A stretch of DNA of 64,000 nucleotides from Escherichia coli (GCF_044324785.1 NZ_CP172127.1), one strand, 5' to 3'. Positions 24,001 to 27,000 are shown, numbered from the stretch's first letter. Numbers are program-made.

Positions 24001-27000
24001 AAAGACGACTAAGGCTGATAGAGATAAGAGACCGATTCTGTAATGGAAAGGCCTCAGAGTTGGCTCGTCGAATAGAAAGGGAACCATCATACGTTTCCAG
24101 AATGCTGTATCCGGAAGGAAAAAGCGGAAAAAAACGCATTGCTGACGATATGATGGAACTAATTGAAAAATCTTTTAATCTCCCACGCGGATGGATGGAC
24201 ATGCTTGCAGATGGTAAAGCTGGAGCTACAGACCATCTTGAGTTTGCGGGTAACGTTCGTGCGGGTTTTGTTCCGGTAATTGGTGAAGCCGTTTTGGGAG
24301 TTGATGGCTCAGTGGATATGATTGAATTCAGATCCGGTTGGTTAAGCATCTACAGCGGCGATAAAGATGCTTACGGTCTGAAGGTTAAGGGTGACAGCAT
24401 GTGGCCAAGGATTCAGTCAGGAGAATATGTTGTTATTGAACCAAATACGCCAGTACATCCAGGTGATGAAGTCTTTGTAAGGACCAAAGACGGTCACAAC
24501 ATGATAAAGATCATGAACAAAACAAGAGACGGTGATTATCAGTTTAGTAGCATAAACAGTGATCACCGCCCAATCACTCTTCCTGTTGAAGAAGTTGATA
24601 AAATGCATTTTGTTTCAGCTATTGTGAAACACACCAGGTACGTAGACCAGGACGATCTGCCAAAAGTTTGAGGATAAAGCAGCAAGTGTTTATACCCGGC
24701 ATAGTAGTCGCTGTTGTAATCATCTGCTTCATATGGGCAAAGTTATCTCCTGTAAGCTCTAAGCATACAGCTGAACTCATGAAGAAGAAGCATCTTATAC
24801 ATGAGGCAGAATCGATAATTAAAAAGTTCAAAGGCATGTCATACGACGACATGTCATCAGAGCAGATTGCTATGTATAAATGCGCCATTGAGCGTCTTGA
24901 CTACTTAAACGGACTCAAACCCAAACACACCCCAGTAGAATCAAAATTGCCGCAATGGCCAAGCAATCCAAATAGCTTCTGACATCTCCTTTCAGCCCGC
25001 AAAGCGGGCTTTTTTATATCAATCCAAAAAATTAATTACCTGAAAATTCAAGCAGGTAAACTCTTACATCAATTTTATTTACCTGCAGGTATAGACAACT
25101 GTTTTACCTGTAGGTATATTTTAGGCCATCAGCAGGACGCACTGACCACCATGAAGGTGATGCTCTTAAAAATTAAGCCCTGAAGAAGGGCAGCATTCAA
25201 AGCAGAAGGCTTTGGTGTGTGTGATACGAAACGAAGCATTGGCCGGAAGTGCGAATCCGGATTAGCTGCCAATGTGCCATTGCGTGGTGTTTTCGTTCAG
25301 GACTACGACTCCCACACACAACCAAAGCTAACTGACAGGAGAATCCAGATGGATGCACAAACACGCCGCCGCGAACGTCGCGCAGAGAAACAGGCTCAAT
25401 GGAAAGCAGCAAACCCCCTGTTGGTTGGGGTAAGTGCAAAACCAGTTAACCGCCCTATTCTCTCGCTGAATCGCAAACCGAAATCACGAGTAGAAAGCGC
25501 ACTGAATCCGATAGACCTTACGGTGCTGGCTGAATACCACGAACAGATTGAAAGCAACCTGCAACGTATTGAGCGCAAGAATCAGCGCACATGGTACAGC
25601 AAGCCTGGCGAACGCGGCATAACATGCAGAGGACGCCAGAAAATTAAAGGTAAATCTATATCACTTATTTAGAAAATGCAGATTTAGGGAACAGATAGGA
25701 GGCGTTACACCTATGGCATCTCATCCTATGGTTAGAAGGTGGTGCAAATCCTTCGTATTGAAGTATGGATTTCACAGAAGATTCATAGCATTGAGCGCAA
25801 AGATAGTGCATTGGCTGACCGGTATTTGCCGATTTTTTGAGACGATAAACCACCGTAGCAACAGTAGGTGTATACATCTCATAGTTTTTCTTTTCCTCTT
25901 CCCACTTAGAGGCTCGATTTATCTTTTCTTCAAGCTCAATAATCTTGTCCTTAGAAATCATCAAAAGCTCATTAAGTGACATTTGCTGCTGTTGGGCATC
26001 CATGAGCTTATCGACAAGTTCGTATGTTTTTTCTTTTACTGAGTAGTCTATTTGCATTTTCTGGATTTCCTTTACTGCGCCAACAGCACTCATCAGAGCA
26101 CCTCCGGCACCAGAAACTGCATCTGTAATCCTACTTATTATTCCTTTTTCATCAGACATATAAATCACTCTCTTACTGTAGGGGTAAGAGGATTTTACTA
26201 TTTTTCTCGCTGTAGGGGTACACGAGAACCACCGAGCCTGATGTGGTTAAAAGACAGGCATACTAATAAACACTGCACTGTGTATTCATTCCAACGAGTG
26301 AATACACGGAGCAATGTCGCTCGTAACTAAACAGGAGCCGACTTGTTCTGATTATTGGAAATCTTCTTTGCCCTCCAATGTGAGGGCAGTTTTTTTGACG
26401 GAGTAAACGATGATAAAAACTGATTACCCTGCAGAGCTTAAACAAAAAGTAATAACAGCAATTAAATGCTCTTTTATCTCATGTCGTACAGATGAAGAAC
26501 GATATGTCGTTGAGTGTACAATTGTCGAGTTTCTCACAGCGATGGAATTTACCGCTGCAGAATCAATAGATGTATTAAAGCAATCAGACGGAAATGATAT
26601 TGAAACGGATGATGTTATTGACCGACTAATAAAATCATTCGAAGAAGAAATAGAGTAGCCGCCTGAGCGCGGCTTTACCGCATACCAATAACGCTTCACT
26701 TGAGGCGTTTTCGTTATGCAATCAAACAGAAGGAGCATCCTATGCAACAGTTCGCTATTGCAGGGGCGGCATCGGTTCGCCCTTTCAACCCGATTTTATC
26801 GGTGCAGCATTCACGAAAAAATATTTTAACCGGAGCAGACTTTAAACAACCAAGAATGAAAAGTTTGCTCGAAAAGCTTTGGGATATTTTGAAACAACAA
26901 GGCCGTCCATGAGTTTTACAGATAACTGGTCAGACGAAGAATTCATTCGTCAGATGAAAGAATTAATCGGTAACGAAGGAGATATTCATGTCACTTGCAA

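Follow-up and report, generated by a model that had tools for sequence, protein, structure and literature searches.

Probable identity of a gene antisense to the pL operon of a lambdoid Escherichia coli prophage as the anti-phage defence gene rip1, placed in the sieB slot behind a sieB-type promoter

The stretch of Escherichia coli DNA analysed here (GCF_044324785.1, NZ_CP172127.1; 64,000 nucleotides, hereafter the window) carries a lambdoid prophage in which a gene for a 164-amino-acid (aa) protein, referred to below as rip1, lies opposite the early-left (pL) operon. The rip1 coding sequence (164 aa plus stop) occupies 25665..26159 on the minus strand and is assigned from the open reading frame (ORF), from PDB and PHROG matches, and from the annotation of phage HK446. 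A cI-like repressor gene is located at 23985-24671 on the plus strand, followed at 25349..25672 on the same strand by the antiterminator gene N of the pL operon, which is 95.7% identical to lambda N at the DNA level and carries the same name in the HK446 record and in E. coli genome annotations; because both genes are on the plus strand, pL reads from left to right. At their 3' ends rip1 and N, on opposite strands, overlap by 8 bp at the N stop, which confirms the 164-aa antisense ORF converging on the N stop that had been described in a first-pass annotation made from the sequence alone.

The longest frame at this position (25665..26168, minus) begins with GTG and would give 167 aa, while the ATG at 26159 gives 164 aa. 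The ATG is the likely start, since both the HK446 annotation and the 164-residue PDB chain fit it, and the GTG at 26168 was rejected on the same two grounds and because the Shine-Dalgarno-like AAGAGAG, which lies eight nucleotides (nt) before the ATG, abuts the GTG. The GC content of rip1 is approximately 39%, compared with approximately 51% for N, a base composition typical of what is expected for a moron.

The protein was expected to have a hydrophobic Gly-rich segment, a coiled coil, and a C-terminal CxxC...CxxC arrangement. The long helix and the cysteine motif are borne out, while the N-terminal segment is rich in small residues and only weakly hydrophobic. Residues 6-30 are 52% Gly/Ala/Ser and form an amphipathic segment, with a Kyte-Doolittle maximum over 19 residues of 0.96, so that it is not a classical transmembrane helix. 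An AlphaFold2 (AF2) model has a helix at residues 7-34 (low confidence) and a second at 39-90, followed by a beta-rich C-terminal domain, and Cys121, Cys124, Cys148, and Cys151 are invariant in an alignment of 20 homologues.

The family, which the first-pass annotation did not recognise, is now identified as Rip1, whose structure has been solved. The window protein is identical to HK446 gp37 at 163 of 164 positions over the full length, and it matches PDB entry 9OOX (phmmer E 1.4e-105) with the single substitution Y96H. This entry, released on 2026-02-04 under the title 'Cryo-EM Structure of the Escherichia phage HK446 Rip1 in complex with the Enterobacteria phage T6 small terminase', contains 12 Rip1 chains, and its molecule name is 'ring interacting pore 1 (Rip1)'. 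HK446 gp37 has H96, in agreement with the PDB sequence, where the window protein has Y96. Structure prediction, proposed earlier as a check, agrees with the assignment, as the AF2 model matches chain 9oox_M with a Foldseek TM-score of 0.85 (normalised to the target). The protein also matches phrog_1244 (E 4e-53), a family listed by PHROGs as of function unknown; searches of Pfam, NCBIfam, and PADLOC (PADLOC 2.0) with the rip1 protein gave no significant match, and the RefSeq/PGAP label is 'hypothetical protein' in the genome record inspected and in the listed matches. With regard to residue 96, the Tyr96 allele is found in the window, in phages ev099 and vB_EcoP-720R6, and in all ten rip1-bearing loci of a viral contig collection, whereas HK446 has His96.

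Relatives of Rip1 are widespread. Close relatives (43-98% identity, best local alignment) form 29 clusters, three of which are shorter fragments, and they occur in Escherichia, Citrobacter, Edwardsiella, Pantoea, Providencia, Serratia, and Proteus. A profile search retrieved 2,962 cluster representatives at E <= 0.001, of which 1,387 also reach E <= 1e-10. Most of the 150 best among the 2,962 are 140-220 aa long, and this number and size of homologues rule out that the gene is a known lambdoid early gene annotated on the wrong strand, as had been considered at first. Of 5,426 complete E. coli genomes, 95 (approximately 2%) carry the full rip1 gene together with its promoter. More distant homologues, at approximately 30% identity, are found in Pseudomonas Mu-like phages, including D3112 orf25, DMS3-25, JBD30, and MP38. 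In DMS3 (locus L126, 2468-2995), the homologue is antisense and is flanked by the large terminase gene and by a 'DNA binding protein' gene, the latter taken here, as a guess, for that of the small terminase; the presence of a family of terminase-ring sensors inside a Mu-like terminase operon is curious.

The position of rip1 is that of a known superinfection gene. In lambda, sieB (34482-35036) comes directly after N on the opposite strand, and in P22 it is antisense and adjoins gene 24, the N analogue; rip1 sits exactly in this lambda/P22 sieB slot, antisense to pL. The protein has no similarity to the SieB of lambda or P22 (best BLASTP E 9.7), and cargo clustering parts the two families. The lack of similarity at the same slot indicates that rip1 is a non-homologous replacement of sieB. 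Compared with lambda, the window from 25300 to 26700 is a mosaic in which the rip1 coding sequence is without a lambda match.

Upstream of the gene lies a sieB-type promoter block of 88 bp (PsieB; 26175..26262, minus) that is conserved with lambda and P22; within it, 26175-26260 shares 87% identity with the sequence immediately ahead of sieB in lambda. The P22 RefSeq record places the sieB promoter at 29690-29720 and the 'sieB RNA start site' at 29727. Alignment to these features predicts a -10 hexamer, TAAAAT, at 26192..26197 and a transcription start at 26185, both on the minus strand; in the three-way alignment, P22 and lambda have TAAACT where the window has TAAAAT. The P22 sieB start was reportedly mapped by RNase protection by Ranade and Poteete in 1993. 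The predicted 5' untranslated region of 26 nt is essentially unstructured (-3.8 kcal/mol, z +0.96). The proposal of the first-pass annotation that the antisense gene is independently regulated thus gains support, as far as sequence goes, from the alignment to the P22 sieB promoter and RNA start, which suggests independent transcription. In P22, sieB is among the genes expressed from the prophage in the lysogen (PMC10883804).

Two further elements upstream of rip1, a direct and an inverted repeat, had been noted at the outset, and neither is statistically significant alone. The 11-mer ctgtaggggta is present twice, as stated, and has no third copy in the window. Its proximal copy (TACCCCTACAG on the minus strand; 26176..26186) begins at or next to the predicted +1, and its distal copy (26210..26220, minus) lies over the -35 region, inside the aligned P22 promoter feature. 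Close 11-mer direct-repeat loci number six in the window, compared with approximately 1.5 in shuffles. Lambda and P22 retain both copies ahead of sieB, with a spacing of 34 bp, and all 116 cargo-bearing promoter copies among the matches listed retain the proximal one at that spacing (35 bp in seven), while the sequence between the repeats differs between a SieB version and a Rip1/HkaP version. The direct repeat is thus real because of its conservation across phages, not by statistics, and the alignment to P22 and lambda makes the two copies integral parts of a known promoter type. A hairpin at the proximal repeat (26169-26191) was considered as a terminator or as a structure sequestering the Shine-Dalgarno sequence and was rejected: it is unconserved in lambda and P22 as judged by eye, it is not stabler than shuffles (z -1.3), and its left arm is upstream of the predicted +1.

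The inverted repeat (arms gtgtattca at 26280-26288 and tgaatacac at 26299-26307) is likewise present, but it is not an upstream element of the gene's own, as it lies in a separate lambda-like block. Its arms belong to a hairpin of the pL-sense RNA with a 12-bp stem and a 4-nt loop (26280..26307, plus), recognised from the fold and from the lambda-like block, and 9-bp inverted-repeat loci number nine in the window vs approximately 3.8 in shuffles. The window from 26265 to 26395 matches lambda 33925-34055 at 97.7% identity. This lambda stretch lies between ral and ea10, downstream of the former, and is approximately 340 bp from the sieB promoter, with orf28 and ral in the interval. The separation of the inverted repeat from the sieB promoter by these two lambda genes led to its rejection as a rip1 operator; it is assigned to the early-left transcript rather than to the control region of rip1. 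As pL-sense RNA, 26262-26400 folds into three hairpins (-47 kcal/mol, z -5.4), the last of which is an intrinsic terminator with a GC-rich stem and T7 (26368..26396, plus) that was found by terminator scan and RNA fold and is kept in lambda. A search of 24600-27200 against Rfam at permissive settings gave nothing near the gathering score. Luk and Szybalski are said to have described a tL2 terminator cluster between bet and ral; the hairpin module may correspond to part of it. The lambda records annotate no terminator there.

The gene downstream of PsieB is exchangeable. A scan of the viral contig collection with an exact 36-nt promoter core gave at least 120 loci, and the first downstream ORF was scored in 126 promoter copies, consisting of the loci listed and the reference loci. 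Among these listed matches, 92 copies are followed by a SieB-like cargo, 13 by Rip1, and 11 by HkaP, a second 164-aa protein known from HK620, HK629, and HK630; eight have no cargo, the promoter remnant abutting a convergent gene, and two have a disrupted or truncated cargo. A single conserved promoter cassette antisense to pL thus carries Rip1, HkaP, or SieB as alternatives. The eight cargo-less copies (L012, L018, L056, and five others) keep the Rip1/HkaP version of PsieB up to the -10 hexamer, beyond which a hairpin (CCCCCTTATTTTGTCAGGGGG) and a convergently oriented gene of 120-148 aa (MGQEEKYELKK...) take over, a junction that suggests that the cargo is flanked by recombination hotspots.

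A function in exclusion or abortive infection, guessed at first from the antisense position, is supported by the Rip1 identity, the sieB position, and the sieB-type promoter. A 2026 preprint names 'TerI and Rip1' as defences that detect the small subunit of the terminase (TerS; bioRxiv 10.64898/2026.04.30.721860). Secondary literature has 12 Rip1 monomers capping an 11-subunit small-terminase ring, and describes Rip1 as blocking the replication of the incoming phage by a pore-based mechanism. Taken together, we consider it probable, at roughly 85%, that the gene is rip1, a single-gene anti-phage defence carried by lambdoid prophages.

A sequence of events may be proposed on this basis. In the lysogen, where cI would hold pL off, an unstructured mRNA that is readily translated would be made from the PsieB-type promoter, allowing soluble Rip1 to accumulate. 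Late in infection by a T-even-type phage, once the TerS ring is made, Rip1 would dock on it through its C-terminal four-Cys zinc-ribbon domains, and the ring would act as a template on which the long helices and the Gly/Ala-rich N-terminal helices are bundled into a 12-mer. This 12-mer could then open the inner membrane, and the infection would be aborted before progeny are packaged.

The host prophage itself would be spared, as its own TerS is of an unrelated, Sf6-gp1-like type. The TerS of the window (11778-12218) belongs to phrog_309 and has a C-terminus like that of Sf6 gp1; a link between it and the solved complex was rejected, since it matches only Sf6 gp1 PDB entries and not 9OOX. The same rip1 gene rides with three different packaging modules, which are P22/Sf6-like in the window, that of the Hendrixvirinae phage HK446, and that of a lambda-like prophage with the nohD DNA-packaging protein, and carrier phages appear to tolerate Rip1. 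Possibly, strong convergent transcription from pL also silences rip1 during the prophage's own lytic growth: transcription from de-repressed pL would cross rip1 in antisense on its way to the terminator at 26368-26396 and could shut the gene off. A parallel exists in P22, where the sas antisense RNA shuts off sieB (PMC12197685).

An in-frame Met35 is also present in rip1 (window approximately 26055-26085, minus), with AAGGA ten nt upstream. A product starting there would drop the N-terminal Gly/Ala-rich helix and recalls Esc, the truncated SieB that serves as an antidote in P22. Met35 is replaced by Leu in more distant Rip1 homologues, and a general promoter scan called no plus-strand promoter inside rip1.

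Several points weigh against this account of rip1 and its action. Residue 96 differs between the window protein and the solved Rip1, and chain 9oox_M leaves 38 of 164 residues unmodelled. For the pore and for abortive infection, the support consists of the PDB molecule name and two secondary mentions, and the modest hydrophobicity of the N-terminal segment of Rip1 means that membrane insertion is only proposed. At the level of transcription, the promoter and +1 of rip1 were assigned by alignment to P22 alone, a generic sigma-70 scan did not call the promoter, and the -35 region (TACCCC / TGTACC) is poor.

Three other explanations have been weighed. Rip1 might be an analogue of SieB that halts macromolecular synthesis midway through a lambdoid or P22-like infection by a route that does not involve terminase sensing, its complex with TerS being incidental. 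The slot, the orientation, and the promoter are indeed those of sieB in lambda and P22, and SieB is known to act midway through the lytic cycle (PMC10883804). However, the specific 12:11 complex with T6 TerS has been solved, the two proteins have neither sequence similarity (the BLASTP result above) nor a hydrophobic transmembrane segment of the SieB kind in common, and an independent group counts Rip1 as a TerS sensor, which leaves this explanation very improbable.

Equally slight is the chance that Rip1 serves the lytic cycle of its own phage, as a packaging regulator or a holin-like lysis timer acting on the phage's own terminase. It is true that Rip1 binds a terminase component and that the homologue of approximately 30% identity in Pseudomonas Mu-like phages is placed between the 'DNA binding protein' and large terminase genes. 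Nevertheless, the TerS in the solved complex comes from an unrelated virulent phage, the same allele occurs with three different packaging modules, and Rip1 is optional, as SieB, HkaP, or nothing takes its place in otherwise similar phages; in addition, rip1 opposes the early-left operon from what is, judging by its sequence, a promoter of the lysogen type. A chance open frame antisense to the pL transcript, with repeats that are chance matches, can be dismissed for practical purposes, because although antisense ORFs are common and the repeats are statistically unexceptional, the protein has been purified and its structure solved, approximately 2,960 profile matches at E <= 0.001 and invariant cysteines in close homologues are found, and the repeats are kept across three cargo classes.

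Beyond the identification of rip1 as a defence gene, a wider and rather speculative reading, to which we give only limited credence, is that PsieB is a dedicated platform for exchangeable defence cargo with a control logic of its own. The decamers would bind a regulator or act at the RNA level, and the convergence with pL, possibly together with an Esc-like Rip1 starting at Met35, would give self-immunity to the carrier while it grows lytically itself. By analogy, such self-immunity would parallel the SieB/Esc/sas switch of P22.

Other possible accessory genes lie elsewhere in the window. Directly downstream of cI, where lambda has rexAB, a 104-aa ORF with one hydrophobic segment (24668-24982, plus) overlaps the 3' end of the cI-like gene. 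It matches phrog_10450 (E 1e-54), a family of unknown function, and may be a second accessory gene expressed in the lysogen. PADLOC searches of this ORF and of HkaP gave no significant match. Directly after the terminator, an 82-aa acidic protein (26410-26658, plus) matches phrog_14587, 'anti-restriction protein' (E 5e-48), and takes up the mosaic position that ea10 has in lambda. Upstream of the terminase genes and two small ORFs away from the TerS gene (11778-12218), a 161-aa ORF (13118-13603, minus) has a C-terminal half that resembles, by eye, a GIY-YIG / T5orf172-type domain (YVYVL...KIGFS...) and may be another moron or a homing-endonuclease-like gene.

Rip1 is already characterised and structurally solved, so that the finding is correct and not new; being one substitution away from a published, solved defence protein, rip1 in the window adds no new biology by itself. 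Its value is in annotation, as the RefSeq, PHROGs, Pfam, and PADLOC entries could be updated. A modest new point is that the N-proximal slot is a defence hotspot in lambdoid phages, and the conserved decamer pair at -35 and +1 is a testable regulatory element.

Among known systems, the closest is the Rip1 of HK446, whose flanking DNA, from N through the promoter block to the downstream anti-restriction gene, shares 99.3% identity with that of the window over 1.39 kb. HK446 is a Hendrixvirinae phage, whereas the window prophage has a P22/Sf6-like packaging module and another immunity region. The SieB of lambda and P22 shares with Rip1 the slot, the antisense orientation next to N or gene 24, a homologous promoter, and both decamers, and it is likewise a prophage-carried gene that acts against superinfecting phages, but the proteins are unrelated and Rip1 is without a strongly hydrophobic transmembrane segment. 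HkaP is of the same length, also matches phrog_1244 (E 8e-51), occupies the same slot, and has a -10, 5' untranslated region, and Shine-Dalgarno sequence almost identical to those of rip1 up to the ATG; it is only 27% identical to Rip1, and its N-terminus is without the Gly/Ala-rich run. TerI, likewise a defence encoded by a prophage, in this case of Listeria, is directed at the small terminase or the terminase complex of incoming phages, but it is described as inhibiting DNA packaging rather than forming a pore (bioRxiv 10.1101/2025.02.27.640495). The Avs1-3 STAND NTPases, similar to Rip1, bind a conserved packaging protein of tailed phages directly and oligomerise on it, while they sense the large terminase and are large ATPases with enzymatic or other effector domains, in contrast to the 164 aa of Rip1.

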